A stretch of 64,000 bases of DNA from Bacteroidales bacterium (GTDB lineage Bacteria > Bacteroidota > Bacteroidia > Bacteroidales > VadinHA17): positions 1,530-65,529 of the forward strand of contig JBBSAP010000001.1 in NCBI GenBank assembly GCA_038252165.1, in the 5' to 3' direction. The notes under the pieces were generated by a model. That model had not been told where the DNA came from. It saw only the letters and a program-made list of their open reading frames with translations, and ran no database searches. Within the stretch, counting starts at the first letter, position 1, and the number at the start of each line of letters is the position of its first letter. The position numbers were made by a program, and so were the translations under genes. Of the stretch, positions 1,766 through 17,865 are shown piece after piece.

Positions 1766-1860
1766 TATTGTATAATGCTGTGATTTATTATTATTTGGAA
1801 AGGAGAAAAGTATCTCTTAACTTATGGTACAAAATCTCAGAAATGTTCTGAAAACCTAGT

Positions 1861-3993
1861 ATGGCAATATCAATACATAAGCCTAAAAGGATACCTCTAC
1901 TCTTTCTTATTGGAATTGGGATTCCCTGCATTCTTCTGGGCTATCTGGCTTTCCGCGGTATTCAGAATGATCAGGCATTGCTGGAGAAAGAAAAGGTAAA
2001 CGAACACCGAAAAATTTCAGAATTGGTCACTCAGTCTGTTGAAGAAAATATTTCTGAAGTTGAGCAGGCTTTTTTGTACATCCTCGCCAAACATCAGGAG
2101 ACCGATCAATCCGGTCTGATTCTATCACTTGACAGCTTGAAACAACAGAATCCTTTAGTTGAAGCGGTCTTTTTTTATGAAAATTCCGGAGAAATTCGTC
2201 TGCCTGCAGCAAAGCTTTTGTTTCTTCCCAATGGCAGTATTCAATCATTCACTGTTTCGTCCCGAACTCCAGCTTCGATGAGAAAAGTACAGATTGGGCA
2301 ACAATTCGAATTTCAGAAAAAAAACTATCAAAAAGCCCTTACCAGTTACCAGCAGCAATTTGATCAGGTTTCTGACCCTCAAATGAAAGGAGAACTGCTT
2401 AGCGCAATTGCCAGAGTTCAAAAAAAATCAACTCTCTTTCGGGATGCTGAAAAAACCTATGAGACGATTTCCCGGGATTACAACCATATACAGACCTCAG
2501 GCAGAGTGCCATTAGGATTGGCAGCCCGGTCAGAACTCAGCTCTTTATCTATTGAAACTGGTGACACTTTAACCGCCTTAAAAGCATCCCTTGATCTATA
2601 CAAAGATCTTCTTAACAGGGAATGGATCCTGGACAAAGCTCAATATGATTTTTTTTCCCAGCATATTAAAGAATCGATTGATATTATCTTTTCAAAGACT
2701 TCAATGGCTGGACCTTTGCTTCCATATCAAAGTGCTTATGCAACTTTGAAAGAGGAGGAAAACAAGCAAAGAAATATCACTGAGAGATTGCTCACATTTC
2801 AGGAGAACGCCTCAACAGACCTTAAGGCCAGAGTTCCCCTCAATGCGGAAGAACTTCGAAATTCAGCCAGGCGATTTACATTGGAGAGCGGAGATCAGAC
2901 ATATCTTGTTTCTATATTGAATCAATACACGGGAAATGAAATCCGGGTGAATGAAATCCGGGGTCTCCTTTTAAATGCCGGCTATCTCAGGGATAGCCTT
3001 CTCCGCCAGGTATTGCAGATTAGTGCTCATTCCGGAAAAACCGAGTGGATAATAAAAGGGAGGGATGATCGAACCATTTTGAAGTCGGAGAACTCACCTT
3101 CAGGTTCGGTAACTGTCAGAACAAATTTTGAAGGCAGCTTCCCGCCATGGCCTATCGAGCTCTATCAGCAAACCCCGGACCTTTTTGATACATTTTTAAT
3201 TTCACGACGTGGAATTTATTTCTATGTATTTATTCTGCTGGCGGGTATCCTGGTATTTGGTTTGATCCTGACCAACCGGACCGTTTCTCATGAACTTGAA
3301 CTTTCAAGAATGAAATCTGATTTTGTCTCGACAATTTCACATGAATTTAAGAGTCCTTTATCTTCAATACGGCAGTTATCAGAGATGCTTCAATCGGGAA
3401 GAGTGCCTTCTGAAGAATATCGTCAGCAATATTATGATGTTCTTGTAGAACAAAGTGAAAGACTCTCTTTACTCATCGATAACATTTTGGATTTTTCAAA
3501 AATAGAGGAAGGCAAAAAGAAATTTTATTTTGAGATGATTGATATTGATCCGCTATTGCATGAGATTGTATCAGTCATTCAGGACCAGGTGCGTCATAAA
3601 AATTTCGACATTCAGTTAGAAATTGAAAAGCCCCTGCCATTAATTAAGGTAGACAAAGCAGCTATAGCACAGGCGATTACTAATCTGATAGATAATGCAA
3701 TCAAATATTCCGGGGAAGCCAAAAACATAATTGTTCGGGCGTTTGCGGAAAATCACTACCTGGTCATCACAGTAAAAGACTTCGGTATTGGTATCAGAAA
3801 GGGAGAAACTGATAAAGTATTTGAGCGATTCTATCGAGGGGGTGACGAGTTGACGCGAAAGGTTAAAGGGAGCGGGCTTGGATTGACATTAGTCAAACAA
3901 ATTGTGGAGGTGCATCATGGTACTGTTAACGTTGAAAGCGAACAAGGACATGGGAGCACTTTCTCGGTAACACTACCCCTGCATGGAATATGA
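1861..3993 (+). CDS. Sensor histidine kinase, cassette 1 (large extracytoplasmic TPR-like domain between two TM helices)
   Basis: TM near aa 12-32 and aa ~455-478. H-box SHEFKSPLSSI, N-box LIDNAIKYS, G1 DFGIGI, G2 GSGLGL. Confidence 0.9.
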   Translation: MAISIHKPKRIPLLFLIGIGIPCILLGYLAFRGIQNDQALLEKEKVNEHRKISELVTQSVEENISEVEQAFLYILAKHQETDQSGLILSLDSLKQQNPLVEAVFFYENSGEIRLPAAKLLFLPNGSIQSFTVSSRTPASMRKVQIGQQFEFQKKNYQKALTSYQQQFDQVSDPQMKGELLSAIARVQKKSTLFRDAEKTYETISRDYNHIQTSGRVPLGLAARSELSSLSIETGDTLTALKASLDLYKDLLNREWILDKAQYDFFSQHIKESIDIIFSKTSMAGPLLPYQSAYATLKEEENKQRNITERLLTFQENASTDLKARVPLNAEELRNSARRFTLESGDQTYLVSILNQYTGNEIRVNEIRGLLLNAGYLRDSLLRQVLQISAHSGKTEWIIKGRDDRTILKSENSPSGSVTVRTNFEGSFPPWPIELYQQTPDLFDTFLISRRGIYFYVFILLAGILVFGLILTNRTVSHELELSRMKSDFVSTISHEFKSPLSSIRQLSEMLQSGRVPSEEYRQQYYDVLVEQSERLSLLIDNILDFSKIEEGKKKFYFEMIDIDPLLHEIVSVIQDQVRHKNFDIQLEIEKPLPLIKVDKAAIAQAITNLIDNAIKYSGEAKNIIVRAFAENHYLVITVKDFGIGIRKGETDKVFERFYRGGDELTRKVKGSGLGLTLVKQIVEVHHGTVNVESEQGHGSTFSVTLPLHGI

Positions 3994-3999
3994 AGTCAT

Positions 4000-4050
4000 C
4001 AGTCCACAGTCGGCAGTCCGCAGTCCGCAGTCGGCAATTGGCAGTTGGCA
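4000..4050 (+). repeat. Heptad tandem repeat (CAGTCNN x7), left arm of inverted structure
   Basis: CAGTC cores at 4000, 4007, 4014, 4021, 4028 and degenerate units CAATT (4035) and CAGTT (4042). Starts 7 nt after the HK1 stop. Confidence 0.85.
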
Positions 4051-4084
4051 AAAAAGTAGGGAACGATTAAATAATAATAAGAAA

Positions 4085-4450
4085 ATGGCGACAGGATTTA
4101 GGAACCTGACTGTATATAAAAAAGCATTTGCGCTTGCAATGGATATTTATCACATTAGTAAGAAATTTCCGAAGGATGAGCTTTATTCTTTAACCTCTCA
4201 GATAAGAAGATCCTCAAGATCTGTTTGTTCAAATATTGGCGAAGGATATCGTAAACGTCAGTATGAAGCCCATTTTTTAAGTAAAATTTCTGATTCAGAT
4301 ATGGAAAATACCGAAACTCAAGTCTGGCTCGATTTTGCACTTGCATGTGAATATATAAAAAAAGAAATATTTGACGATTTCAATGAACGATCTGAAGAAA
4401 TTGGACGATTACTTAATCATATGATTCAATCCCCTGAAAAGTATAGATAG
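4085..4450 (+). CDS. Four-helix-bundle protein (23S rRNA intervening-sequence protein / Avd-like family)
   Basis: From M35 of the tracked ORF: FRNLTVYKKAF..DIY..KFPKDELYSLTSQIRRSSRSVCSNIGEGY.. matches the family pattern. The tracked upstream extension (3983-4084) merely translates the heptad repeat. Confidence 0.8.
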   Translation: MATGFRNLTVYKKAFALAMDIYHISKKFPKDELYSLTSQIRRSSRSVCSNIGEGYRKRQYEAHFLSKISDSDMENTETQVWLDFALACEYIKKEIFDDFNERSEEIGRLLNHMIQSPEKYR

Positions 4451-4461
4451 CCTTTTTTTCA

Positions 4462-4546
4462 AATTGCCGACTGAAGACTGGAGATTGAAGACTGGAGACT
4501 GGAGACTGGAGACTGGAGACTGGAGACTGGAGACTGAAGACTGAAA
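4462..4546 (+). repeat. Heptad tandem repeat (AATTGcc then GACTGNN x11), right arm, complementary to 4000-4050
   Basis: GACTG cores every 7 nt from 4469 to 4539 (one unit is GATTG). Ends ~27 nt before the RR1 ATG. Confidence 0.85.
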
Positions 4547-4572
4547 ATCAATAACAATTCAAACAGATACTA

Positions 4573-5253
4573 ATGGAAAAGATACTTATCATAGAGGACG
4601 AGGAAAGTGTCCTGATGGCGTTAGAGATTGACCTCAGGATTGAGGGGTATCAGGTTTCAAGTGCAAAAGACGGAATAACCGGCTTATCTATGGCAAAAGA
4701 GCAAGGATATGACCTCGTCATTCTTGATATTATGTTGCCGGAAATGAATGGATTTGAAGTATGCAAACAATTACGTCAAACTGGGATTACGACACCTGTT
4801 CTGATGTTGACTGCCAAAAGCCAGGAGGTCGATAAAGTCCTGGGACTGGAATTAGGAGCTGATGATTATGTCACTAAACCATTCAGCCCGCGCGAACTTC
4901 GTGCCCGTATAAACGCTCTTTTCAGGAGGATGAAGAAGACTCAGCAGGGAATCGACCAATATCATTTCGGCAATATGGATATTGATTTTAAAAAGCATGA
5001 AGTGCTGAAAAACAGACAGACAGTCTACCTTACAGCCCTTGAATTTGCCATGCTTCATTTTCTAATAAAGTATAAAGACCAGGTAGTCAGTCGTGACTCC
5101 ATCCTTGATAATGTCTGGGGCAGAGATGTGTATGTTTACCCCCGTGCCGTGGATACACATATCGCTCATCTAAGGAAGAAAATTGAAGATGATCCGGAAA
5201 ATCCGAAATATATCATTGGTGTTCGAAGTCTTGGATATAAATTTAAAGGATAA
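4573..5253 (+). CDS. OmpR/PhoB-family response regulator, cassette 1
   Basis: Receiver domain (LVILDIMLPEMNG, LTAKS, GADDYVTKPF) plus winged-helix output (VDTHIAHLRKKIE, GYKF). Confidence 0.92.
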   Translation: MEKILIIEDEESVLMALEIDLRIEGYQVSSAKDGITGLSMAKEQGYDLVILDIMLPEMNGFEVCKQLRQTGITTPVLMLTAKSQEVDKVLGLELGADDYVTKPFSPRELRARINALFRRMKKTQQGIDQYHFGNMDIDFKKHEVLKNRQTVYLTALEFAMLHFLIKYKDQVVSRDSILDNVWGRDVYVYPRAVDTHIAHLRKKIEDDPENPKYIIGVRSLGYKFKG

Positions 5254-5259
5254 TCAATC

Positions 5260-5276
5260 GTAACCAAATCTTAACA
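5260..5276 (+). promoter_or_regulatory. Direct TAAC-core repeats (GTAACC / CTTAACA), 11 bp apart, candidate RR site
   Basis: cgTAACCaaatCTTAACAc immediately after the RR1 stop and upstream of the propeller gene. Homologous to 10378-10394 in cassette 2. Confidence 0.3.
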
Positions 5277-5367
5277 CTATATACACATTAGCTTCATTCA
5301 TCAAAAATATCGAATTAATATGTTTACTCCTGTAAAATAAAAATTATAAAAAGAGGAGGAACTAATC

Positions 5368-7380
5368 ATGAAGTTACATCACTTTATTGCAGTTGTTCTT
5401 GTTTTCATGTTTATAGGTGTATCATCCGGGTACGCCCAGCAAACTGCGGAACAACTTTACCAATCCGGATTGTACAAAGAAGAAATAGAGGGGAAGCTGG
5501 ATGCTGCCATTAAAATTTATGAAACGATTATTAATCAGTATCCGGAAAACCGAGCGGTAGCAGCAAAGACGCATCTCCATATCGGACTATGCCACGAAAA
5601 ACTGGGCAATACAGCGGCCCGTAAGGAATATGAACGTATTGTGAGTGAATATACCGATCAATCTGATATTGTGACTCAGGCAAAGGAGAGGCTGGCGGTA
5701 CTTGGCAGTCCCAGTAATAAAAAAGGATTTATTACACGCAGGATTCTCGAAGATGCAACCGGTGTTGGTGAGGCACTGACCGCAGATGGCAAGTACATTA
5801 TAGGTTTAATCCGGGAAAAGGGTGACGTCTCCAGGTTCGAAATTACCAGTGGACAGACAAGCCAGATTAAAAACAAAGGATTATGGAGTGAGACTGACAT
5901 GAGCTTCATGGGCACGGCTTTATCACGTGACGGAAAACAAATCGCATATGATTCGTATAAGAAGGATTGGGCCCCTCAATTACTGATCAGAAACCTTGAT
6001 GGTTCAGAAGTTCGCACACTATACAGTGAGGTGGGCTATTACGCCCTGCCATTTGACTGGTCGCCTGATGCAGGATCCATCCTTGCACTTCGCAATAAAA
6101 ACGACATTACTGAATTAATACTTATTTCGACATCAGATAGCTCCATACGTGTACTGAGGAATATCCCTTCGAGTATGTTCATGTTTGAAAAGGCTTGTTT
6201 TTCACCTGATGGGCGATATGTCGCGTTCAGTTTTGTTTATGAAGGTAACCCACCCCATGGGGACCTCTTCCTGATGACATCCGATGGCCGTAATGAGATC
6301 GTTGTTGCCGGGCATCCCTCGGAGGATCGACTACTTGGATGGACACCTGATGGGAAAAGTCTTATCTTTCTAAGTGACCGCTCAGGGACATGGGATGTCT
6401 GGACTGTACGCATCATCGCAGGGAAGCAGCAGGGAGAACCGCAACTGCTGAAGAAAGATTTCGGCTATTATTCAGAGGTTATTGGCATTGCACCCATCGG
6501 ATCGTTTTATTACAAGGTTAACAACCCTTTAGGTGGTCTCTACAGCGGTGCAATCGACATTGAAACAGGCAAGATACTTTCACCCCCTTCACCTAAAGCA
6601 ACACGGTATACCGGCCCGCCTTATAATCTGACATGGTCATCCGATGGAAAATACTTGCTCTATCGTTCACGGGTGGGTTCTATGGGTCCCGGGAACAACA
6701 TCCTTACTATCAGGTCCGAATCAACCGGAGAAGAACGTTTTCTGTCGCCTCATCTTCGTTTTGTTAACCAGATCTCCTGGGCGCCTGATGGCCGTTCCAT
6801 CTTCGCTATTGGGTTGACAGAAAAAGAAACCGCAATGTATCAAATTGATGCTGAAACAAGCGCAATCACGAAACTCAAAGGTCACGGGTTTGCACCCCGC
6901 CTATGTCCGGATGGAAAAAGCCTGGTATTCTTAAAGTCGGGGATGGGGATGATAATCACTAGAATGAATATCGCGACAGGGGAAGAGTCGGAAGTTGCTA
7001 AAACGATAACAATGAACTACGACCTCTCGCCGGATGGAAAGGAAGTGGTGTTCCAGAAGGATAGCATTGTAAAAACCGTATCCCTCAGCGGAGGGGAACC
7101 CAAAGAGCTGGTACGCGGATTGGCCCAGTATTACGGACTTAAGTGGACAAGTGATGGCCGATACATCGTAGCCCGGGCGCTACCCTCCAGTGAACTGAAC
7201 AATGAAAACAGTAAAATCTGGCGGATTCCGGCACAGGGGGGGACTCCTCTTAAGTTGGATCTTTCTGTTCCAAATATGGTATCATTTGCGCTTCACCCCG
7301 ATAATAGCCATTTTGTTTTCAGTGTCTCTGGGGAGAACAAAAGTGAGTTGTGGGTTATGGAAAACTTCTTACCGAAATAA
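5368..7380 (+). CDS. Secreted TPR + PD40/TolB-like beta-propeller repeat protein, cassette 1
   Basis: Signal peptide (..GVSSGYAQQ). YbgF/BamD-like TPR (YPENRAVAAKTHLHIGLCHEKLG). Repeated SPDG/TPDGK/SSDGK blades. C-terminus ELWVMENFLPK. Confidence 0.75.
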   Translation: MKLHHFIAVVLVFMFIGVSSGYAQQTAEQLYQSGLYKEEIEGKLDAAIKIYETIINQYPENRAVAAKTHLHIGLCHEKLGNTAARKEYERIVSEYTDQSDIVTQAKERLAVLGSPSNKKGFITRRILEDATGVGEALTADGKYIIGLIREKGDVSRFEITSGQTSQIKNKGLWSETDMSFMGTALSRDGKQIAYDSYKKDWAPQLLIRNLDGSEVRTLYSEVGYYALPFDWSPDAGSILALRNKNDITELILISTSDSSIRVLRNIPSSMFMFEKACFSPDGRYVAFSFVYEGNPPHGDLFLMTSDGRNEIVVAGHPSEDRLLGWTPDGKSLIFLSDRSGTWDVWTVRIIAGKQQGEPQLLKKDFGYYSEVIGIAPIGSFYYKVNNPLGGLYSGAIDIETGKILSPPSPKATRYTGPPYNLTWSSDGKYLLYRSRVGSMGPGNNILTIRSESTGEERFLSPHLRFVNQISWAPDGRSIFAIGLTEKETAMYQIDAETSAITKLKGHGFAPRLCPDGKSLVFLKSGMGMIITRMNIATGEESEVAKTITMNYDLSPDGKEVVFQKDSIVKTVSLSGGEPKELVRGLAQYYGLKWTSDGRYIVARALPSSELNNENSKIWRIPAQGGTPLKLDLSVPNMVSFALHPDNSHFVFSVSGENKSELWVMENFLPK

Positions 7381-7408
7381 AAAAGACTCATAATAAGAGC
7401 ATTCTCAA

Positions 7409-7443
7409 GGGGCACAATGGTAATTCGTTGTGCCCTTTTTTTC
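7409..7443 (+). terminator. Rho-independent terminator after propeller gene 1
   Basis: GGGGCACAA - 10 nt - TTGTGCCC then a T-run. Confidence 0.65.
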
Positions 7444-7451
7444 CTTGTTTG

Positions 7452-7488
7452 ATTCTTAACAGAATTTGTCAAATTCTTAACACGTAAC
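7452..7488 (+). promoter_or_regulatory. Direct repeat ATTCTTAACA x2 (21 bp apart) plus GTAAC, upstream of HK2
   Basis: ATTCTTAACA at 7452-7461 and 7473-7482; GTAAC at 7484-7488. Confidence 0.35.
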
Positions 7489-7534
7489 TGCCTGATTTTT
7501 CTGATATTTGATAATCATAAGTTATGCGGTTCTC

Positions 7535-9562
7535 ATGAAATCCACCCATCACGGATCACGTCGGCAAAGGATCATATTGTATTATGCCCTGGCTGTGGTG
7601 CTACCAGGCATTTTACTGGGTTATATGGCCTACCGTGGTATTCGTAATGACCAGGCACTGCGCGAGAAGGAGAGCCTGAGAAAGCTTGAAATTAACAGTC
7701 AGGTTTTTTTTACTGCAATTGATTCAAGTATTGTTAATTTCTTGAATGAACAGACAGCTGATTCGATGCTTTCCAATTCCAAACCTGGCGATTCTTCAAT
7801 ACTTGTATTTTTTGTCAAAGACTCAAGCGGTTTAAAAAGACTTATAACTCATCAACTGCTTTATCTCCCTGCTGAACTGCTTACTATTGAAACTGAGCAG
7901 CTAAGTACTCCGACCAATATGAAAGAAGGTCTCAGACTGGAGTTTACAGAGCGCAGATACCCGGAAGCATTCAGATTTTATCAGGATAAGATCCTCAAAA
8001 CAACTAATCCTGCTGAAAAAATCCAGGCACTGATAGCTTCGGCCCGGTTGTATAACAAAATGAACCAGCCTGACCGGGCCAAACGCCTATACGATGAGAT
8101 CCGGAAAGATTATCCCAGAAGCCTTCTTAACGGAGAAATACCACTCGGACTTATTTCCACTCTGGAAATTCTGAAGATCAGCAAGGACAGGGGAGAAAAG
8201 GACGAAATGATGAACAATTCCCGGCAATATCTGGAGCTTCTACTTCACCCTCCTGGTGAATACGATAAAAATCAGTTTGACCTGTTTTACCAGTCTTTTA
8301 AAGAGATCATCCGGGAACCAGATCCGATTATTAATTCCCTCTTCAGGGAGCTTGATACTCAGAGGGCCCGTACTGATTATATTATCCAGATACTCATAAG
8401 ACCGGATTTTATCACAACTAATGGCAATAATGGATTCAAAAGTGGCAAAAATGGTATATCCGGTATGCCAATTAATTCATCCGAACTTGCCGCAGTGTAT
8501 TTATCACAGGACAAAAACAATGGCATACAAACAGATATGGTGATTGATTTCCCGGCTTACCTGAAATCCAGATTAGAAATATTAACGCAAAAACTTGATC
8601 CGGACTCTTCAATAAACTTAAAGATTGAAGACAACAACGGGAGACTTATTTTTTCCAGAGTCATTACTGGTGAAACCGGCTATCTTACTTTCCCATTTCC
8701 GGAAAATCTGCCCAAATGGGAACTACTTCTAAGCGAAAATAAGCCAGGGTTCATGGCAACGTTGTTTAAAGCGGGAAGCGGCATATATCTTTTAATCTTT
8801 ATTCTGATCGCACTCTTCATGCTGCTGGGTTTTGTATTTATCATATATACTCTCAACGTGGAACTCAGGCTGAACAAAATGAAATCGGAATTCATTTCCA
8901 ATGTATCGCACGAATTAAAAAGTCCGCTCACTTCCATCCGGATGATGACTGAAATGCTGCATCACAACCGTGTTGAGACGGAAGAGCGCAAATCGGCATA
9001 TTATTCAGTTATGCTGGAGGAAAGTGAACATCTCAGCCATTTAATAGAAAATATTCTGGATTTCTCAAGAATGGAGGATGACCGCAAGAAATACGATTTT
9101 ACCGATCTGGATCTGAATGAACTCATGGAGAAATTTCTTGAATCAATCCATGAAAGACTTACCGAATCAGGTTTTGATATCCAGTATAATCATCCTGACC
9201 GGATACCTTTAATCCAGGCTGACAAGGATTCCATTCTCCAGGTTATATATAATCTGGTGGACAATGCAATAAAATTCTCCGGGACATCCAGGCAAATTGA
9301 CATCAACCTGTTATCAAAAGATTATGAGTTGCAGCTTTGTGTGAAGGATTACGGAATTGGCATTCCCGGAAAAGATCAGGAAAAAATATTCGACCGGTTC
9401 TATCGCTCCGAAGAACCACAACGGATGGGAATCAAGGGAAGCGGAATAGGTCTGACTATTGTGAAAAAAATAACAGAAGCTCATAATGGGCAACTGACGG
9501 TTGAAAGCAGCCCGGGAAAAGGAAGCACGTTCACGGTCAGGATACCATTGTGTGGATTCTGA
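7535..9562 (+). CDS. Sensor histidine kinase, cassette 2
   Basis: Paralog of 1861-3993 (LPGILLGYMAYRGIRNDQALREKE vs IPCILLGYLAFRGIQNDQALLEKE). H-box SHELKSPLTSI, LVDNAIKFS, DYGIGI, GSGIGL. ATG at 7535 preferred over the tracked TTG at 7508. Confidence 0.9.
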   Translation: MKSTHHGSRRQRIILYYALAVVLPGILLGYMAYRGIRNDQALREKESLRKLEINSQVFFTAIDSSIVNFLNEQTADSMLSNSKPGDSSILVFFVKDSSGLKRLITHQLLYLPAELLTIETEQLSTPTNMKEGLRLEFTERRYPEAFRFYQDKILKTTNPAEKIQALIASARLYNKMNQPDRAKRLYDEIRKDYPRSLLNGEIPLGLISTLEILKISKDRGEKDEMMNNSRQYLELLLHPPGEYDKNQFDLFYQSFKEIIREPDPIINSLFRELDTQRARTDYIIQILIRPDFITTNGNNGFKSGKNGISGMPINSSELAAVYLSQDKNNGIQTDMVIDFPAYLKSRLEILTQKLDPDSSINLKIEDNNGRLIFSRVITGETGYLTFPFPENLPKWELLLSENKPGFMATLFKAGSGIYLLIFILIALFMLLGFVFIIYTLNVELRLNKMKSEFISNVSHELKSPLTSIRMMTEMLHHNRVETEERKSAYYSVMLEESEHLSHLIENILDFSRMEDDRKKYDFTDLDLNELMEKFLESIHERLTESGFDIQYNHPDRIPLIQADKDSILQVIYNLVDNAIKFSGTSRQIDINLLSKDYELQLCVKDYGIGIPGKDQEKIFDRFYRSEEPQRMGIKGSGIGLTIVKKITEAHNGQLTVESSPGKGSTFTVRIPLCGF

Positions 9563-9649
9563 AGTCCACAGTCCTCAGTCCTCAGTCTGCAGTCCATCTA
9601 GAGACTGCCTACTGCCGACTGAAGACTGCCGACTGGAGACTGGAGACTA
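9563..9649 (+). repeat. Heptad-repeat hairpin (CAGTCNN x5, apex CATCTAGAG, NNGACTG x7)
   Basis: Starts at the nucleotide after the HK2 stop codon and ends 27 nt before the RR2 ATG. Confidence 0.85.
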
Positions 9650-9675
9650 CTTAAAACCAAGATATTTATAAACCA

Positions 9676-10371: not shown

Positions 10372-10413
10372 CCTGATCTTAACCAAACTTAACATGACTC
10401 CCATATGCTTAAC
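10367..10413 (+). promoter_or_regulatory. Four direct CTTAAC(C/A) repeats, candidate OmpR-type RR binding array
   Basis: CTTAAC at 10367, 10378, 10388 and 10408 (spacings 11, 10, 20 bp). The last repeat lies 40 nt upstream of the propeller-2 ATG. Confidence 0.35.
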
Positions 10414-10452
10414 ACTGGCAGGCGGTACCTTTATTAAAAAATAATTTACATC

Positions 10453-12435
10453 ATGAAGACACATTTGATATTAATTATTGCCCTTGTATTCCTGGCAGGA
10501 TCCCTTTCCGCCCAGGACAACAAGGCATCGGTAGCGCTTGCAGCAGCAATTTATGAGGAAGAAGTAATAGGCAACCTGGATAAGGCTGTAGAATTCTACC
10601 TGAATATTCTCAAAAAATATCCGGATGACCGCCCTGTGGCTGCTAAAACCCTGTATCATCTGGGATTAGTTAATGAAAAAATGGGTAAACAAAAAGCCAG
10701 AGAATATTTCACGCGTCTGGTAAACACATATCCAGATCAAACCGAAATGGCAACCCTTGGAAAGGCAAAGCTGGCCGCACTGGCGGGAGCTGAAGGTGCA
10801 TCGGAGAGTTCAAAATTGGCGGTTAGGAGGATCTGGGAAGGTGATATAACCGGTCAGGTGACACCCGACGGTCGTTTCTTGTCGTTTATGGACTGGGCGT
10901 CAGGCAGTCTTGCCATCCACGATCTCGCAACCAGCCAGAATCGACCTTTGGCCGACAAGGTCATGGCTGAGAACTCTGTACCTTCACCAGACAGCAAGAG
11001 TATTGCTTACAATCCGTACAATGATGATTACTCAAGCAACCTTTGTGTCGTCGGGCTTGATGGCTCGAAGCCGCGGATCCTTCACGCTGCAGGAGATGGA
11101 GTCTTATCACACATTCCTTTGGCATGGTCGCCTGACAGCAGACAACTGCTCGCTGAATACGTGAAGACCGACGGAAGCCGTGACATGATGATGGTAACCG
11201 TAGCTGACGGCTCAACGAGGCTGCTAAAGGCGACAGGAAAAGAATTCTCTCCTGGAGGAGTGTTCTCTCCCGACGGACGATACATCGCGTGGTCTACCAA
11301 GGAAGGAATTTCGCTGTTCGATCTTCTGACTGGAAAAGAATCGCTGCTAATACCGGATCAGTCGAACCATAAAGTCCTGGGCTGGGCACCAGACGGGAAA
11401 TACATTCTGTTCTCCAGCGAGCGATCTGGATCTGCCGATGCATGGCTGATCGAAGTAGCCGGTGGGAAAGCGCTGGGGGAACCGATATTCGTTAAGAAAA
11501 ATTGGGGCTTTTTACCAATGGGTTTCACAAAGTCGGGAGCTTTCTACTATGCGGTCAATAATAACATATGGGATATTAAAATTGCCGAACTCGATCCTGT
11601 AAGCGGAAAAGTTATCTCTCCACTTAGATCTGCATTCAAATATGGTAATATGCGAAGTCCTGACTGGTCTCCTGATGGACGCTCACTTGCAGGAATTGTT
11701 GCCAGCGAACCGAGCCAGGCGGTGATTATCCATTCAATGGATACAGGTGAGGAGCGAGAAATTCCGGTAGGTGGATGGATAATCGGGTTGGGTCAACTAC
11801 GGTGGATTCCTGACGGAAAGGCAGTAGTGGTTCCGGCATCTCATGCTGGGAAGGGAGATAACCTGATACGAATTGATATGGGAACAGGTCAGGTGACTTC
11901 TTTGATGACGCTTCCAGCATTGAGAGGTTGGGCAAACTTCAGATTTTCTCAGGATGGCAACATAATATACTACAACAGACCTGATTCTTCAAACATAAAA
12001 GAATCCGAACTTGTAGCCCACGATCTGCGTTCTGGCAAGGAGACAATAGTCACCGGAGAATCAGGCCTTATGTCGCCAGATGGACAGAAGCAACTAATAA
12101 CCTCGACTCTGGACGAAGACCAGTCTCAGGCGCTGCTCATCATCCCTGCTGGTGGGGGAGAGCCAAGGTTATTAATCAAATCCTTTTGGGGTTTACCATC
12201 GTGGACGCCAGATAGTCGATATATCTTTTTCTTAAAAGGTGTCCAAGGAAATAACAAGCAGTGGCAACTATGGCGGGTAGCAGCTGAGGGCGGAGAACCA
12301 GAGCCACTGGGGCTAAAAGTTACCGGTCAGCTAGCAGGATCCCTGAAGATTAGTCCCGATAGCCGCTGGGTAGTTATTGACGACGTCAGGGTAAACCTGG
12401 AGATGTGGGTAATGGAGAACTTCCTGCCGAAATAG
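10453..12435 (+). CDS. Secreted TPR + PD40/TolB-like beta-propeller repeat protein, cassette 2
   Basis: Signal peptide (..GSLSAQD). TPR YPDDRPVAAKTLYHLGLVNEKMG. SPDG/APDGK blades. C-terminus EMWVMENFLPK. Confidence 0.75.
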   Translation: MKTHLILIIALVFLAGSLSAQDNKASVALAAAIYEEEVIGNLDKAVEFYLNILKKYPDDRPVAAKTLYHLGLVNEKMGKQKAREYFTRLVNTYPDQTEMATLGKAKLAALAGAEGASESSKLAVRRIWEGDITGQVTPDGRFLSFMDWASGSLAIHDLATSQNRPLADKVMAENSVPSPDSKSIAYNPYNDDYSSNLCVVGLDGSKPRILHAAGDGVLSHIPLAWSPDSRQLLAEYVKTDGSRDMMMVTVADGSTRLLKATGKEFSPGGVFSPDGRYIAWSTKEGISLFDLLTGKESLLIPDQSNHKVLGWAPDGKYILFSSERSGSADAWLIEVAGGKALGEPIFVKKNWGFLPMGFTKSGAFYYAVNNNIWDIKIAELDPVSGKVISPLRSAFKYGNMRSPDWSPDGRSLAGIVASEPSQAVIIHSMDTGEEREIPVGGWIIGLGQLRWIPDGKAVVVPASHAGKGDNLIRIDMGTGQVTSLMTLPALRGWANFRFSQDGNIIYYNRPDSSNIKESELVAHDLRSGKETIVTGESGLMSPDGQKQLITSTLDEDQSQALLIIPAGGGEPRLLIKSFWGLPSWTPDSRYIFFLKGVQGNNKQWQLWRVAAEGGEPEPLGLKVTGQLAGSLKISPDSRWVVIDDVRVNLEMWVMENFLPK

Positions 12436-12457
12436 AAGAATAATAAGAGCATTCTAA

Positions 12458-12492
12458 GGGGTATAATGATTGGTTGTTGTGCCCCTTTCTTT
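12458..12492 (+). terminator. Rho-independent terminator after propeller gene 2
   Basis: GGGGTATAA - 10 nt - TTGTGCCCC then TTTCTTTT. The stem is kept by G-U wobbles relative to the 7409 copy. Confidence 0.55.
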
Positions 12493-12605
12493 TCGAAAAA
12501 ATGTACAAAATTATAAACTACTGAGTTTTACCCCATCGCTCCTGCCTTGCTACGCCGAAGCGGCTTCGCGAAGGCGCAGAAGGGGGGCTAACCAGTATCT
12601 TGAAT

Positions 12606-12631
12606 AAAGCCCCCATTAAGGGGTTGGGGGT
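12606..12631 (+). repeat. C5/G4-5 hairpin repeat element (AAAGCCCCC-ATTAA-GGGG-TT-GGGGGT)
   Basis: Same element family as 30823-30852 and 56228-56256. Overlaps the last codons and the stop of RR3. Confidence 0.6.
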
Positions 12632-13320
12632 AATTCTTTCAGGGAATTAAACCTGTAACCAATATCTCTCACACTTTCAATATACCTTGGTTTTGACGGA
12701 TTTTCTTCCAGTTTTTTTCTGAGATCAAGTATAAAATTATCTATTGTCCTCGTTGTGGGTATGGCTTCATAACCCCAGACTTCATTCAGAAGATCATGCC
12801 GGTGAACAGCCTCACCTTCATGTTTGATAAAATATTCCATTATTGCAAATTCCTTCCCTGATAATTTTATTTCATGATTTTCTCTGAAAGCCTTAAATTT
12901 TTTAAAATCAAGAGTTATATTTCCGAATGAATAATATTCAGGAATATCAGGTTCATCTTTTATTCTCCTGAAGGCAGCCCTTATCCTTGCCAAAAGCTCC
13001 GGCAGGCTGAAGGGTTTGGTAACATAATCATCTGCGCCAATATCGAGTCCCGAAACTTTATCCATTTCAGATCCGCGGGCAGTGATCATGATTATGGGTA
13101 GTTCAGGCTTTTCCTTTTTCATTTTCCTGCATATCTCGTACCCATTCATGCCTGGTAACATTATATCAAGTAATATAAGGTCAGTTTTTTTCTCAAGGGC
13201 GAGCTGCAGGCCTTTTTCCCCATTTGTTTCTGTAATAACAGTATAACCTTCGTATGTCAGGTTATCTTTCAATCCCCTGAGAATACTTATATCATCTTCA
13301 ATTATCAGGATTTTCTTCAT
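12616..13320 (-). CDS. OmpR/PhoB-family response regulator, cassette 3
   Basis: Receiver (LILLDIMLPGMNG, GADDYVTKPF) plus winged helix (IDNFILDLRKKLE, GYRF). Confidence 0.92.
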   Translation of the reverse strand: MKKILIIEDDISILRGLKDNLTYEGYTVITETNGEKGLQLALEKKTDLILLDIMLPGMNGYEICRKMKKEKPELPIIMITARGSEMDKVSGLDIGADDYVTKPFSLPELLARIRAAFRRIKDEPDIPEYYSFGNITLDFKKFKAFRENHEIKLSGKEFAIMEYFIKHEGEAVHRHDLLNEVWGYEAIPTTRTIDNFILDLRKKLEENPSKPRYIESVRDIGYRFNSLKELPPTP

Positions 13321-13343
13321 TAGTATTTGTTTGTATCTTAATC

Positions 13344-13447
13344 TAGTCCTCAGTCTTCAGTCTCCAGTCTCCAAATTGCCGACTGCCGACTGCCGACTGC
13401 CGACTGCCGACTGTAGACTGCCAACTGCGGACTGCCGACTGTGGACT
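13344..13447. repeat. Heptad-repeat hairpin between HK3 and RR3 (plus strand: CAGTCNN x4, apex AAATTGCC, GACTGNN x10)
   Basis: Cores at 13344-13369 and 13381-13447. In transcript (minus) sense the order is HK stop, CAGTC units, apex, GACTG units, RR start, as in cassettes 1 and 2. Confidence 0.85.
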
Positions 13448-15461
13448 ATTTTCCAACCAGAGGAATTCTGACTGTAAACCTGCTTCCTTTACCAACTTCG
13501 CTTTCAACATCTATCGTTCCGCCATGAGCTTCAATGATTTCTTTTACAACAGTTAATCCTAGTCCGGTTCCACTGATACTCGTTTTTTGCTCAATCCGGT
13601 AAAATGGTTCAAAAATCTGCGACATTTTTTCAGCAGGAATGCCGATGCCCCTGTCCTCAATCACAATGCATATGTCGTCTGTTTCTCTAAATAACCTGAT
13701 GAAGATCTTTTTTGCATCAGTCGAGTATTTTATGGCATTGCTTAATAGATTCTCAATCATCTGTTTCATTTTTTCGGGATCAACATCAGCAAAAATATTT
13801 TCATCCAGTTCAGTCACAACATCAAATTTTTCTTTTTCAAACCAGTAATTCATATCGTGCAAAGCTACTTTCAGGATGGAGGCCAGATTTGAATTGACAA
13901 AGTGATATTCCGGTTTGCCTTTTTCCATCTTTGAAAATTCCAGGATGTTGTTGATTATACGTTTCAAGCGGTCGCTTTCGTTCACAACCACTGAAAGATA
14001 TTCCTTTTGTATTGAGGCTGATTTTACCCTTCCCATAATAATTGATTCGGCATACATCCGGATTGAGGTCAGCGGTGTTTTTAATTCGTGAGTTACATTC
14101 GAGATAAAATCGGACCTTAAGCGTGCCAGGTATTTTTCCCTTGCGATATCTCTTAAAATCAATACTACTCCCAGGCACATGGCAACAAGCAGCAAAACAG
14201 AGGCAACACCGTAAATCCAGCTTCTGCGTTTTATTAAGTCGTTTACCAGATCTTCGCTACCAGGTTTTATTTCTATTTGTTGATTCGGAAACCAGGGATT
14301 CAGTTGTGAAGTATAAACAAGGTCATCACTGGTTGTATTTGATTTATATAACCCAGGCAGTTCAATTTGGTAATCAAATTCAAGACCAGATTGCAGGTGT
14401 GTTTTTAAGACAGCATCAAATAGTTTGTCACGATCGATTAAAAAACCTGCCGGATCTTTAAAATTTGTGTTGATCAGAAAAAATTTCTGACTGGTTCCTG
14501 AGCCAGAATTAACAACTTTAAAATCATTACCGGCAATAAAATGGTTATCTAAATTTCCTTTTTTCACAAGCTCTGACAGTTCATTCCCATATACATTGAT
14601 AAACTGAACCTGTTGTTTTATGCTGTTGATCATACTAACAATTCCATCTGAATTTGCCCTGGCGTTAAAATTATTTTCATTTAACCAATCTGACACTAGG
14701 GTCAGTAGTTCCTCTGTGCTAAAATTCAGGGGAATTAAACCTGTTTCCATTTTTTCAAGACAATTTTCAACAGCCGGCAGATTTTTTTCAGGTTTATCTG
14801 TTTTAGTTATTTTCAGAAGCTGTGGCAAAGCATAATAAACATAAGGAAATCCGTTTCCGTCTGTTGCATGGAAATAGTCAGATATAATGGCACTGTATGC
14901 GGAAATCGCATCTTCAACAGCATCAAGTTTTAATGAAATCCTCCCTAATGCATTTAATGCCTTGACTGAATCGCTGCTTCCGGTCGAATAACTCAGGCAT
15001 GATAAATAAAAATCTTTTGCCTTTCGTGGATTTTTTTCGGTAAATTCAGCTCTTTCTCCTGCACTGAAAGCAGAGATAAACCTTATTGAAAGTTTTAAAG
15101 CAGATGAATTTTCAGGTATCCCGATAAAATTCGGATATAAAAACTGACCGTTGTTGTTCAGGAGGAATGGCTGTATAATAAAATCATTTTCTACAGCTTT
15201 TTTGATCAATGAGTCGATCATTAAACCTGACTGCCCGATATTATTTTTTAAACCATCGGTTACTTTGCTAATTTTTTTTTCTACTGAGGCTGAAAACTTT
15301 GCTGAAAGTTCCCTCTGTTCCTCAAGGATTCTTTTTTCAGTTAGTTTTTTCAGGTTGGAAATGTTATTAATACTGAAGTAAGTTAATACGCTTCCAGAAA
15401 GGATTACAGCAAGGATAAAAATTATTGTAAGCCTCGAAGCAGGCATTATTTTATGGTTCAT
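13446..15461 (-). CDS. Sensor histidine kinase, cassette 3
   Basis: Two TM helices. H-box THELKTPLTSI, LLSNAIKYS, DRGIGI, GTGLGL. Confidence 0.88.
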   Translation of the reverse strand: MNHKIMPASRLTIIFILAVILSGSVLTYFSINNISNLKKLTEKRILEEQRELSAKFSASVEKKISKVTDGLKNNIGQSGLMIDSLIKKAVENDFIIQPFLLNNNGQFLYPNFIGIPENSSALKLSIRFISAFSAGERAEFTEKNPRKAKDFYLSCLSYSTGSSDSVKALNALGRISLKLDAVEDAISAYSAIISDYFHATDGNGFPYVYYALPQLLKITKTDKPEKNLPAVENCLEKMETGLIPLNFSTEELLTLVSDWLNENNFNARANSDGIVSMINSIKQQVQFINVYGNELSELVKKGNLDNHFIAGNDFKVVNSGSGTSQKFFLINTNFKDPAGFLIDRDKLFDAVLKTHLQSGLEFDYQIELPGLYKSNTTSDDLVYTSQLNPWFPNQQIEIKPGSEDLVNDLIKRRSWIYGVASVLLLVAMCLGVVLILRDIAREKYLARLRSDFISNVTHELKTPLTSIRMYAESIIMGRVKSASIQKEYLSVVVNESDRLKRIINNILEFSKMEKGKPEYHFVNSNLASILKVALHDMNYWFEKEKFDVVTELDENIFADVDPEKMKQMIENLLSNAIKYSTDAKKIFIRLFRETDDICIVIEDRGIGIPAEKMSQIFEPFYRIEQKTSISGTGLGLTVVKEIIEAHGGTIDVESEVGKGSRFTVRIPLVGK

Positions 15462-15511
15462 GAAAGTTTTATCGTTTTTCTGCTTATCTGGTCATTATTG
15501 TATTTATATGT

Positions 15512-17623
15512 TTACTTATCCTTAGAATAAACTTCTGTAACCTTGCTTCCCAGGTTTTCTACTACCCGTATTTCTGCCTGACTGACAGCAGTTGAAAGGG
15601 CAATCCGCTTTCCATAAGGGTGAATGCTTATTCCTGCGATTTGATAATTCTTTGATTGCCAGACTCTTTCCGGCGTGCCTCCTTCTGCAGGAATGCGGCA
15701 TAATATTGATTTTACCATTGGAGCCTGAGCGGAAAAATAAATATATTTTCCGTCAGGTGATAAATTAATTCTCTTGTACATTCCTCCTTCAAAACTGGCA
15801 ACACATAATATTCTGACTTCTCCTCCGTCTTCAGGAATACTCAAAAGATGAGATTCGCCTTCTTTTAACTTTACTGGTCCGTCAGTATTTGCTATACCGT
15901 TGAATAAAAGGTGCTTGCCATCAAAAGATCTCTTTAAAGTCGGGTCGAAGAATAAATCTTTATTTGTAAAAAGGATTTTTTCCTCTCCTGTATTAATATT
16001 ATGTTTTATAATGTGATTGTCACTTATGTAATAAATATTTTCCCCCTCTTTATCCCACTCAACACAGCCACCATTTGTGTTAATTTTTTGCTTAACCTTA
16101 ATTTCAACCGGTAATCCGGTTTTAATATCAATGGAATAGATTCCTCCATGATAGGTTTTATCTTCTGAACGTAGTTTGTCAATCCCGAATGACAGCACTG
16201 ATTTACCATCAGTTGAAATTTTGGGACCTCCTTTAATATCCAGATTATCTGCCAGGATTCGGCTCTCTCCGGATTTGCTGTTGTACACAATAAGTTTGAA
16301 AATCCAGTCCTCTGTGTATTTTCTGCAGATCAGCGATTCTCCGTCAGATAACCAGGTAATATCAAAGATGGGACCTGAAAATGCTGTCCGCGGAGTATCG
16401 GATAATTTTCCGGTGCTTTGATCAAGAGATAAAGCAAAAGATTCGAAAATATCCGATTTTATACCATAATATAGTGATCCATACCGTGTAAAACCTATGA
16501 TGGAGGTTATATCCCCGACATTTGTCAGTATCCGTTCCGGTACATCAACTGGTTTCTCTCCGGTAGTATTTACAGCCCAGATATCGGTTGTGTTTGAACG
16601 ATCGCTGGTAAACAACAATTCATTTCTTCCCGGCATCCAACCAAGAAGCCGGTCATTTGAAGGATTATTAATAAGCGGTTGTTCCTTATTTGAATCTAGT
16701 GACAGCAGGTATATATCATACATGTCTTTGTCAGAAGGATTTGGGAAATCAAAAGCTATCTGTTTTTCATCCGGAGCCAATGATAAATTAACCATTGAAG
16801 AAAGCCCGGGTACTTTTTCTTTCAGCACCTTTACTTCCTTGTTTGTGACATCAATTAAAGATAGTTGCCATTTCTGGTTTTTTTCATCTGACTCCTGGAA
16901 GATAATTTTCTTACCATCTGCAAACCACAATTCAGGAACCGGGTATTCATTTGTACCGCAGAAGTAAATGGAAACATAGGTTTGTGTGCCTAACTCCATT
17001 AATCTTAATTCCCAGACACCTTTTTCATTGTACCAACCATAAGCAACCTTCTTACCATCCGGAGATATCAGACTAAATAAAGCATATTGTACCGGACCTT
17101 TCCAGTTGCCTTCTTTCGTCAGAGGCTTATTCTCACCGGTTTTCAGATTCCTTATTGCCAGGTTCCCGGTATTCCAGTCAGTAAAGGTAAGATATTCCCC
17201 ATCAGCCGATACACTGCCTAACATATCTACCTGTGGTCCTGCCCAGACCTGTCTTAATGCAATTTCTTTGGTTGATCCGATTTTTATTAACCTTGCCAGT
17301 CTTTCCATGGCAGCTGCAACTTCATTTTTTTGTGCCGGGAAATTACTGACCAACCGCTGATATGCTTTTACTGCTTCCTTCGTTCCAAGCTTTTCATAGC
17401 ACATGCCGATATGCAACAGTGCCTTCGCTTGCAGTGATTGATCGGCATTTGAATTATCTGCGATCTGATTATACAGGTTGATTGCATCCAGCAGCGCGCC
17501 TTCACCTTCTTCCTTAACCAGACCTTTCTGATATAATTGTTCTGGAGTCTGGGCTTTTGAAGAATGTACGTTTACAGTAACCAGGGCTGTAACAAGAATG
17601 ATTATAACAAAGATTGGTTTCAT
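15512..17623 (-). CDS. Secreted TPR + PD40/TolB-like beta-propeller repeat protein, cassette 3
   Basis: Signal peptide (..VHSSKAQT). TPR (LQAKALLHIGMCYEKLG). SPDGK/SADGE/STDGK blades. Confidence 0.75.
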   Translation of the reverse strand: MKPIFVIIILVTALVTVNVHSSKAQTPEQLYQKGLVKEEGEGALLDAINLYNQIADNSNADQSLQAKALLHIGMCYEKLGTKEAVKAYQRLVSNFPAQKNEVAAAMERLARLIKIGSTKEIALRQVWAGPQVDMLGSVSADGEYLTFTDWNTGNLAIRNLKTGENKPLTKEGNWKGPVQYALFSLISPDGKKVAYGWYNEKGVWELRLMELGTQTYVSIYFCGTNEYPVPELWFADGKKIIFQESDEKNQKWQLSLIDVTNKEVKVLKEKVPGLSSMVNLSLAPDEKQIAFDFPNPSDKDMYDIYLLSLDSNKEQPLINNPSNDRLLGWMPGRNELLFTSDRSNTTDIWAVNTTGEKPVDVPERILTNVGDITSIIGFTRYGSLYYGIKSDIFESFALSLDQSTGKLSDTPRTAFSGPIFDITWLSDGESLICRKYTEDWIFKLIVYNSKSGESRILADNLDIKGGPKISTDGKSVLSFGIDKLRSEDKTYHGGIYSIDIKTGLPVEIKVKQKINTNGGCVEWDKEGENIYYISDNHIIKHNINTGEEKILFTNKDLFFDPTLKRSFDGKHLLFNGIANTDGPVKLKEGESHLLSIPEDGGEVRILCVASFEGGMYKRINLSPDGKYIYFSAQAPMVKSILCRIPAEGGTPERVWQSKNYQIAGISIHPYGKRIALSTAVSQAEIRVVENLGSKVTEVYSKDK

Positions 17624-17650
17624 TTTTTGGTCCTCCTTTTAATTTTATTA

Positions 17651-17658
17651 CAAAACTA
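17651..17658 (-). promoter_or_regulatory. Bacteroidota -7 box candidate (TAGTTTTG) upstream of propeller gene 3
   Basis: Exact TAnnTTTG on the minus strand, 28 nt upstream of the ATG at 17623. Confidence 0.3.
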
Positions 17659-17865
17659 CGGCGACCAGAAATGCCCGTTGTCACGAAAAAGTATAAGTTA
17701 TGTAAAAATTGTGTCATGGCAAAAACAAATCAACTTGTTTCCAATTCCAAGTGTAAGTGGGTTTTTTGTTTGTAGACAAGACATTTGAAATATCTAACCT
17801 TCTCAAGGATATTACCCAGGTATATAAGCTATTTTATCAGCTCCAATTGTCTGAAAGGGAAGAAA

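Follow-up and report, generated by a model that had tools for sequence, protein, structure and literature searches.

This analysis concerns a stretch of 64,000 nucleotides (hereafter the window) from the Bacteroidales contig JBBSAP010000001.1 (positions 1,530 to 65,529; assembly GCA_038252165.1). Three cassettes lie back to back in it, each consisting of genes for a histidine kinase (HK), a response regulator (RR) and an exported protein (BP) that joins tetratricopeptide repeats (TPR) to a beta-propeller built of PD40 repeats. A first, sequence-only reading of the window had suspected a dedicated three-component module in this arrangement, and a synteny survey over at least four phyla upholds this core idea. 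Here, we show that the propeller is exchanged between cassettes at the linker behind the TPR head and that its relatives are fused to other membrane transducers, and we discuss BP as a candidate co-sensor of its kinase.

Gene content of the locus

Cassettes 1 and 2 are located on the plus strand in the order HK-RR-BP, namely HK1 (1861-3993), RR1 (4573-5253) and BP1 (5368-7380) followed by HK2 (7535-9562), RR2 (9676-10371) and BP2 (10453-12435). Cassette 3 is found on the minus strand in the permuted order BP-HK-RR, with BP3 (17623-15512), HK3 (15461-13446) and RR3 (13320-12616). The list of open reading frames (ORFs) and the Pfam assignments confirm the coordinates given earlier for all nine genes as well as the permutation in cassette 3, and the latter order is kept in a related locus (L069). 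HK2 starts at 7535 in the public gene call, although its reading frame could also begin with a TTG at 7508. Intergenic gaps measure 50-154 nt with the exception of the HK1-RR1 gap of 579 nt. Strong terminator-like hairpins are located 3' of BP1 and BP2 and a weaker terminator-like site is present at the RR3 stop, and no terminator was found in the RR-BP gaps of the window cassettes. Because of these short gaps and terminator positions the three cassettes represent, as far as the sequence can tell, three separate transcription units.

Histidine kinases and response regulators

All three kinases contain HisKA (PF00512, 64-72 bits) and HATPase_c (PF02518, 99-115 bits) above the Pfam cutoffs, and their H-boxes read SHEFKSPL (HK1), SHELKSPL and THELKTPL. 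The regulators RR1-3 are of the OmpR/PhoB type with Response_reg (PF00072, 102-110 bits), Trans_reg_C (PF00486, 86-93 bits) and an LDxMLP motif; for RR1 the E-values amount to 8e-32 and 6e-25, respectively. Each pair thus combines a HisKA-family kinase with an OmpR/PhoB-family regulator as is known from classical two-component systems (TCSs).

The hydropathy profiles reveal two transmembrane (TM) segments in each kinase, at residues 13-31 and 447-471 in HK1, 13-31 and 419-437 in HK2, and 13-31 and 418-436 in HK3, with 387-415 residues between them. Together with the Pfam domains this bears out the common plan that had been proposed for them (TM helix, extracytoplasmic domain, second TM helix, HisKA-HATPase). 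In the AlphaFold2 (AF2) model of HK1, with a mean predicted local distance difference test score (pLDDT) of 82, TM1 is prolonged as a long helix and followed by a small alpha/beta element, helical repeats (137-324) and a beta-rich element (337-436), so that the predicted periplasmic domain of ~415 residues is of mixed helical-repeat and alpha/beta character. TM2 runs on into the DHp helix in this model and there is no HAMP domain. HK2 and HK3 follow the plan of HK1 according to Pfam, BLASTP and hydropathy, the sensor domain of HK3 being divergent. The N-terminal string GILLGY.A.RGI.NDQAL.EKE, once thought to be common to all three kinases, is restricted to HK1 and HK2, and the N-terminus of HK3 differs. 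A search with the HK1 sensor domain yielded 424 homologs, and all 120 that were listed possess histidine-kinase core domains and a similar length.

Exported TPR/propeller proteins

In BP1-3 Pfam detects PD40 with scores that exceed the gathering threshold and TPR_6 with scores only roughly equal to it. Each has a single N-terminal hydrophobic signal segment followed by an A/Q cleavage-type site, and they are predicted to be exported via a Sec signal peptide into the compartment of the HK sensor domains. The signal peptide, TPR region and PD40 blades that the sequence-only reading had seen in all three proteins are thereby borne out. The AF2 model of BP1 (alignment of 47 sequences, mean pLDDT 81) comprises a signal helix, six helices at residues 27-112 that form three TPR-like hairpins, a low-confidence linker (113-120) and 48 beta-strands (122-665) in about 12 blades, which fits two six-bladed propellers. 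The propeller makes up about 80% of the protein. At the DNA level the signal peptide, TPR head and disordered linker of BP1 occupy 5368-5718 (+), and the tandem PD40 propeller (residues ~120-670, ending with ELWVMENFLPK) occupies 5719-7380 (+). We propose the former, supported by AF2 and TPR_6, as an HK-docking adaptor and the latter, delineated by Pfam, AF2 and Foldseek, as an exchangeable sensor. BP2 (10453-12435, +) has the same parts with a tandem propeller unlike that of BP1 (30% identity), and BP3 (15512-17623, -), which also consists of signal peptide, TPR head and tandem propeller, is the first gene of its cassette. In public databases such proteins are only labelled "tetratricopeptide repeat protein" or "Tol biopolymer transport system component".

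The tail WVMENFLPK, which BP1 and BP2 do share, had been read as evidence for their duplication. It is a family-wide C-terminal motif with E660, V663, E665 and N666 invariant among 47-60 homologs, and is therefore no sign of a recent duplication. It is specific enough to act as a pattern in a genome scan.

Variants of the basic architecture occur in related loci. Double-length BPs with two tandem double-propeller units (~1280-1320 aa) are encoded in L018 (8874-12719), L045 (8001-11855) and L047 (4970-8932), and BPs with an extra Laminin_G_3 (ConA-like lectin) domain at either end in L037 (4595-7879), L043 (5226-7904) and L064 (7182-9992).

Relationship of the three cassettes

Full-length pairwise BLASTP comparison gave 28-36% identity among the kinases (E 1e-62 to 1e-111), 43-56% among the regulators (E 1e-67 to 1e-92) and 27-31% among the BPs (E 1e-60 to 1e-85). 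The paralogy claimed earlier is thus far beyond chance in all three sets; judged by these values, they are clear but old paralogs. Relatives in other genomes are closer: the best ones reach 79% for BP1 and for the HK1 sensor domain, 93% for RR2 and 86% for RR3. Cassettes 1 and 2 had been taken for tandem duplicates. Since their proteins are only 30-56% identical whereas orthologs of each in other genomes show 64-93%, they are not recent duplicates, and a recent tandem duplication is ruled out.

Similar 3' sequences had been put forward as a further sign of duplication. They are real: the motif ATAATAAGAGCATTCT is found twice in the window, exactly at 7392-7412 and with 2 mismatches at 12442-12462 (chance expectation 0.01), and combined with an intrinsic-terminator hairpin it closes cassette 1 (7389-7438, +) and cassette 2 (12439-12487, +). 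The stem GGGGCACAA...TTGTGCCCC occurs in three terminator hairpins (1731-1758, 7407-7438 and 12456-12487). The first of them sits 3' of an unrelated lectin gene, and the upstream ATAATAAGAGCATTCT is present only at the copies behind BP1 and BP2. The motif was found in none of 80 other loci, so these 3' sequences are a local property of this genome and do not testify to duplication. The idea of a conserved regulatory element of the family was rejected for the same absence and for the similar hairpin behind the lectin gene. The GGGGCACAA/TTGTGCCCC hairpin may be a genome-specific repeated terminator or an element similar to repetitive extragenic palindromes (REP-like).

It might be argued that the whole arrangement is a local accident, the cassettes looking alike because of a recent tandem duplication and the propeller genes lying beside HK and RR without any relation to them. 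The shared 3' motif and terminator as well as the equal gene order of cassettes 1 and 2 would suit this explanation. We consider it exceedingly improbable in view of paralogs that are 27-56% identical with much closer orthologs elsewhere, of a 3' motif absent from all other loci, and of a trio that is kept in four or more phyla, by which the neighbourhood survey described below already refutes it.

Conservation of the trio

A scan for relatives with the BP alignment, in which each GTDB species was represented by a single genome, yielded 281 relatives. The 77 loci that were fetched stem without exception from metagenome-assembled genomes (MAGs). They belong to Bacteroidales/Bacteroidota, Aminicenantes, Bryobacteraceae, Solibacter, other Acidobacteriota, Phycisphaerae, Sedimentisphaerales, Pirellulales, Gemmatimonadota and Krumholzibacteriia. 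Synteny was assigned by BLAST of the ORFs in these loci against the window proteins and counted for those BP genes, 61 in number, that have 3.2 kb or more of DNA upstream of them. The canonical order, with HK and then RR immediately 5' of BP on the same strand, is present in 43 of the 61. According to the reading of the maps the other 18 are also situated beside, or fused to, a signalling protein: five are BlaR1 fusions, three have the order BP-HK-RR like cassette 3, three are second BPs in HK-RR-BP-BP units, two lie beside an HK only, and several accompany frameshifted HK/RR ORFs on long-read contigs. Arrays of 2-3 cassettes are common (nine loci). In the reciprocal direction, four HK1-family kinases on long contigs were inspected and an RR together with a TPR-propeller gene is adjacent in 4/4. 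The co-occurrence of the propeller with this HK/RR family therefore holds beyond the window, and by gene order the trio of HK, RR and TPR plus tandem PD40 propeller is conserved across at least four phyla.

An all-vs-all clustering of 430 flanking ORFs revealed no recurrent family except BlaI and shadow ORFs; a conserved regulon beside the cassette was thereby rejected as a candidate. The BP gene is the only one that is consistently co-located with HK and RR, with no other conserved neighbour, and this would also suit a BP that has no sensing role and acts as an effector switched on by the TCS, for instance as periplasmic scaffold, as binder or chaperone of damaged envelope proteins, or as a TolB/CpoB-like maintenance factor. 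The kinase would then sense via its own periplasmic domain of ~400 residues, which may be able to do so alone. The weak similarity of the TPR head to CpoB/YbgF and BamD and the similarity of the propeller to TolB fit such an effector, but the TolB equivalog score of 96 bits is far below its cutoff of 343 and both the TolB N-terminal domain and tol/pal neighbours are lacking (see below). The evidence from exchange and fusion of the propeller, to which we now turn, also bears on this explanation.

In L002 (1-1259 and 16813-20103) and L004 (6785-12782), i.e., in Aminicenantes and Phycisphaerae loci, peptidase genes are found near cassettes. They code for an M56-PD40 fusion, for a complete tricorn protease and for peptidases of the M28, M20 and M2/M3 families, and a gene for an OPT oligopeptide transporter is also present. 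These neighbours are not recurrent in the clustering of flanking ORFs.

Exchange of the propeller between cassettes

A domain-wise mirror-tree comparison was performed with 40 non-redundant cassettes and distance matrices for HK sensor, HK core, RR, TPR head and propeller. The HK sensor follows the core or the RR closely (Pearson 0.93-0.94, Spearman 0.72-0.78). The TPR head is also well correlated with HK sensor, core and RR (Pearson 0.77-0.80, Mantel p = 0.0005; Spearman 0.48-0.56), and for the propeller the corresponding values are 0.10-0.13 (Pearson) and 0.06-0.23 (Spearman). Even within the same protein TPR and propeller show a Pearson correlation of 0.27 and a Spearman correlation of 0.18. 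In pairs of cassettes with RRs at least 60% and propellers less than 40% identical (n=99) the TPR heads are 52% identical, and in pairs with RRs below 55% and propellers at least 50% identical (n=138) the TPR value is 37% vs a background of 34%.

Individual cassettes demonstrate the exchange directly. Orthologs of cassette 2 in three other Bacteroidales MAGs (L006/L066, L025 and L040) possess a propeller of the BP1 type. Compared with the window they are 59-66% identical in the HK2 sensor, 71-76% in the HK2 core, 84-89% in RR2 and 71-74% in the TPR head of BP2, and their propeller is 30-31% identical to that of BP2 and 57-59% to that of BP1. A sliding comparison over 30 columns places the breakpoint of the swap at BP2 residues ~110-120, which matches both the low-confidence linker (113-120) of the BP1 model and the junction GGLVTRRVL of the BlaR1 fusions described in the next section. 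The propeller is exchanged between cassettes at the TPR-propeller linker and the TPR head stays with its HK and RR. This corrects the earlier view of a propeller partner that was merely retained through the duplications. A propeller that shuffles independently of HK and RR with retention of the TPR head is hard to square with a plain effector.

Propeller fused to other transducers

In six Planctomycetota loci a BlaR1-type Peptidase_M56 protein carries at its C-terminal end a fused propeller that shares 60-66% identity with residues 120-670 of BP1. These fusions have an intact HELAH zinc motif, a final TM segment and a low-complexity linker before the propeller, which starts at GGLVTRRVL, i.e., with the first residues after the TPR linker of the free BPs. 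A BlaI repressor gene is located immediately 5' of 4/4 fusions examined (L024 and L032, with pairs in tandem), and BlaI-like ORFs cluster in 6/6 fusion loci.

A propeller-only search of 1.84 billion cluster representatives (clusters at 50% identity) retrieved 2,453 at E<=1e-30. Among 19 N-terminally extended representatives that were scanned, ten carry M56, three a Ser/Thr protein kinase and one regions 2 and 4 of an ECF sigma factor. The three Ser/Thr-kinase fusions contain HRD and DFG motifs and one TM segment followed by the propeller. In every fusion topology examined (four M56 and three kinase proteins) the propeller comes after the last predicted TM segment. The fused propeller is thus predicted to occupy the position that the sensor domain has in BlaR1 and in receptor kinases, and these domain fusions favour sensing over mere response as the role of the propeller protein. 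With the same propeller in the sensor position of BlaR1-type, Ser/Thr-kinase and ECF-sigma fusions, an effector without sensing role appears distinctly unlikely to us.

A further explanation resembles CpxP and ExoR. BP would be both made by the system and inhibitory to it in the periplasm, where its TPR head would hold it on the kinase, and the signal would act through titration or degradation of BP, e.g., by unfolded proteins or by proteases acting on the propeller, instead of through a conformational change induced by a small ligand. PD40 propellers of TolB and peptidases bind peptides, and the BP gene appears to be co-transcribed with HK and RR from its spacing and the lack of a terminator between RR and BP, which would imply autoregulation. 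The build is also ExoR-like, with a signal peptide and kinase-binding TPR-like repeats in a protein released by periplasmic proteolysis (PMC3460628). The BlaR1, Ser/Thr-kinase and ECF-sigma fusions, however, cannot be titrated off their transducer, so in the fusion proteins at least the propeller must signal by a conformational route. We regard this inhibitor as unlikely, though deserving serious attention. For the free BPs the inhibitory feedback version and the activating co-sensor version are not separable by these data.

Proposed mechanism

We suggest, as a fairly probable interpretation, that BP is a co-sensor acting through HK in a three-component extracytoplasmic sensing unit. BP, with its small TPR head, flexible linker and tandem PD40 beta-propeller, would be exported by its Sec signal peptide, and the TPR head would dock it on its own kinase, at the large periplasmic domain of the latter. 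The propeller would bind a signal that is probably a peptide or some other macromolecule, and its occupancy would shift the kinase/phosphatase balance of HK, in which TM2 is predicted to be continuous with DHp and no HAMP domain intervenes. The phosphorylation state of the OmpR/PhoB-type RR would then set the transcription of a regulon encoded away from the cassette. In evolution the propeller would behave as a cartridge that is exchanged at the linker between cassettes and also fused to other membrane transducers.

Since the three cassettes are old paralogs with three different propeller types, they probably report three different signals. By analogy with the propellers of TolB and peptidases the ligand may be a peptide or other polymer. 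The peptidase neighbours in L002 and L004 are a weak hint at peptide or protein sensing, and the Laminin_G_3 variants hint at glycans.

Several observations weigh against the co-sensor. The HK1 sensor domain has no relative in Pfam or NCBIfam, a sequence search of the HK sensor domain against the PDB returned no match below E = 0.07, and Foldseek with the HK1 model detected matches to the kinase core only. With BP1, Foldseek retrieved generic tandem propellers and TolB only. Target genes are not linked to the cassettes, and BP is the only co-transcribed gene that is conserved; it could therefore be the output of the system, or output and feedback inhibitor at once as with CpxP. The correlation of the TPR head with HK and RR could partly reflect plain linkage and a recombination hot spot at the linker with no co-adaptation, because the TPR-coding 5' end adjoins the RR gene in most cassettes. 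Finally, all listed homologs come from MAGs or metagenomes.

If the co-sensor interpretation is correct, these cassettes offer an input module that is physically separate from the kinase, 60-79% identical across phyla, and naturally re-assorted among kinases and other transducers. TCSs that employ an accessory periplasmic protein are known, but only a few of them are understood, and it is usually the input that proves most difficult to identify. The large propeller family (2,453 clusters, in uncultured Bacteroidota, Acidobacteriota and Planctomycetota) would be a natural experiment on the separation of sensor specificity from kinase specificity, and could serve as a template for engineered modular sensors. 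As the propeller should be expressible alone, ligand discovery would be tractable, and a functional hypothesis would become available for thousands of proteins that bear only the two generic labels mentioned above.

Heptamer hairpins and an inserted ORF between HK and RR

The HK-RR spacers of all three cassettes contain inverted arrays of 7-nt repeats, (CAGTCNG)n followed by (GACTGNA)n. This pattern has 21 matches in the 64 kb, all at the three HK-RR junctions, and none are expected by chance. The element in the HK2-RR2 spacer (9562-9649, +) has no ORF in its loop and folds with -40.3 kcal/mol (z -5.3) into a long stem of 5-bp helices parted by 2x2 internal loops. The element in the HK3-RR3 spacer (13344-13440, -) folds alike with -50.8 kcal/mol (z -6.0). 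In cassette 1 the left arm starts directly after the HK1 stop (3994-4056, +) and is separated from the right arm (4462-4545, +) by an inserted ORF (4085-4450, +). Its product of 121 aa is assigned to the 23S rRNA intervening-sequence (IVS) proteins, which are bAvd-like four-helix bundles (PF05635, 2.3e-33). If this ORF is called from 3983 it becomes longer, runs across the HK1 stop and extends through the repeats. Neither the IVS ORF nor the heptamer hairpins had been mentioned in the sequence-only reading.

The IVS-protein ORF is missing from the orthologous HK1-RR1 junctions of the other fetched loci, and in L006 the HK1-RR1 gap is 5 nt long. Heptamers are present in eight further Bacteroidales loci, where 12/12 clusters lie between HK stop and RR start (15/15 with those of the window), and no heptamer repeats were found in the fetched loci from other phyla. 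A search of window positions 1-18500 gave no Rfam match at E<=1. The arm-ORF-arm layout of cassette 1 resembles that of intervening sequences in rRNA, such as the IVS of Coxiella (PMC4990558). Because the paralogous cassettes are too diverged for passive inheritance of the DNA, the element is either selected at the HK-RR position or a mobile IVS-like element that targets it. If selected, the hairpin could serve for processing or stabilisation of the transcript between the two cistrons and thus set the ratio of HK to RR.

In its widest form our interpretation would regard the tandem PD40 propeller as a horizontally mobile, plug-and-play extracytoplasmic sensor cartridge on four unrelated chassis (HK via the TPR adaptor, BlaR1/BlaI, Hanks-type kinases and ECF sigma factors). 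The assignment of signals to kinases would change through recombination at the linker, and in the Bacteroidales cassettes the IVS-like heptamer hairpin between HK and RR would process or tune the operon transcript. We put forward this joint picture tentatively, as quite possible though short of probable.

Neighbouring genes

The window represents chromosomal DNA of a member of the Bacteroidota and encodes SprA of the type IX secretion system, IF-2, NusA, RuvA and Dxr. The contig was assigned to this phylum from the gene of SprA, the type IX secretion translocon (2477 aa, 34130-41563, +), and in the scan for relatives its closest ones are uncultured Bacteroidales MAGs. Directly 5' of cassette 1 a secreted protein of 343 aa with a C-type lectin domain is encoded (561-1592, +), and this gene is not kept beside the cassettes in other loci. 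Farther downstream an ORF of 1582 aa (57131-61879, -) is found in which residues 2-1031 represent a complete AcrB/RND transporter and residues 1311-1450 an ABC-transporter ATPase domain, and a second RND ORF (61888-63900, -) lies upstream of it. The long ORF is either an unusual RND-ABC fusion or the result of a lost stop codon.

Comparison with known systems

The best sequence and PDB matches of the BPs are found with TolB and CpoB (YbgF) of the Tol-Pal system, with which they have in common the PD40 repeats of six-bladed propellers and a TPR domain of small size, and a PDB sequence search with BP1 retrieved TolB only (E around 1e-10). The BPs differ from TolB in having two propellers instead of one and in their number, since a genome has several BPs that have diversified and are each associated with an HK-RR pair. 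Against the TolB equivalog TIGR02800 they reach 71-98 bits vs a cutoff of 343, Pfam detects no TolB N-terminal domain in BP1-3, and no tol/pal genes (tolQRA, pal) lie beside the window cassettes; a TolB/Tol-Pal paralog was rejected on these grounds. A tricorn protease was likewise discarded, as there are only precomputed Tricorn_N and Tricorn_2nd propeller matches and the protein ends with its second propeller without a catalytic part. The features of S9 peptidases are not present either. Concerning anti-phage defence, PADLOC gave no match for any BP and only generic ATPase/REC matches for HK and RR, and this candidate was also dismissed.

A propeller as extracytoplasmic sensor of a membrane kinase is represented by PknD from M. 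tuberculosis, a receptor Ser/Thr kinase with an extracellular beta-propeller, and three members of the present propeller family are built in this way. In the window, by contrast, the propeller belongs to a soluble protein apart from the kinase, and a histidine kinase instead of a Hanks-type kinase would provide the output. PD40-containing kinases are known as such (PMC2877116). Similarity to BlaR1/MecR1 is seen in the relatives of the BP1 propeller, which sit where BlaR1 has its extracellular penicillin-binding sensor domain and which retain HEXXH and the upstream BlaI; the sensor fold is a penicillin-binding domain in BlaR1 and a propeller in these fusions. M56 with HEXXH together with an adjacent BlaI occurs in the relatives L012, L024 and L032 and is lacking in the BPs of the window, which have a TPR head instead of M56 and no BlaI gene and which would, if they signal, do so through a separate kinase.

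A full-text literature search returned no paper that describes a TCS with a TPR-PD40 partner or a fusion of M56 with PD40. With neither curated family nor solved structure nor describing paper found, the system is still uncharacterised, as had been supposed. The principle of an accessory protein is already known. There appears to be no earlier description of the design of a TPR adaptor with exchangeable tandem propeller, of its breadth or of its use on four signalling chassis.

By analogy, the trio would belong functionally with TCSs that employ a periplasmic accessory protein such as ExoR-ExoS/ChvI, QseG-QseE/F, CpxP-CpxA and LuxP-LuxQ, and the synteny with HK and RR reported above agrees with this placement. 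LuxP-LuxQ, TorT-TorS and ChvE-VirA rely on co-sensors based on periplasmic binding proteins, and LuxP, TorT and ChvE are Venus-flytrap proteins. In these systems, as in QseG-QseE/QseF, the gene of the accessory periplasmic protein lies together with the TCS genes or close to them, and its product delivers the signal to the kinase or gates it, as proposed here. QseG plays an ExoR-like role for QseE (PMC6075780, PMC12691602). Unlike the BPs, QseG is an outer-membrane lipoprotein; neither QseG nor LuxP, TorT or ChvE combines a TPR adaptor with a beta-propeller, and none is known as a shuffled cartridge.

The closest parallel to our proposal is ExoR-ExoS(ChvG)/ChvI of Sinorhizobium and Agrobacterium. 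There, an exported periplasmic TPR/Sel1-like protein with a signal peptide binds the large periplasmic domain of the two-TM kinase ChvG/ExoS and controls it and, thereby, an OmpR-type regulator, all three acting together as a single switch (PMC3460628). ExoR itself has no propeller or other ligand-binding module and acts by being degraded, and exoR is located outside the kinase operon. A Pfam scan of BP1-3 at E<=0.01 detected TPR_6/TPR_14 and PD40 only and no Sel1, which separates them from the ExoR family. In the BPs the TPR region is just a head of ~90 residues on a tandem propeller of 550 residues, and this propeller is a module that is swapped between cassettes.

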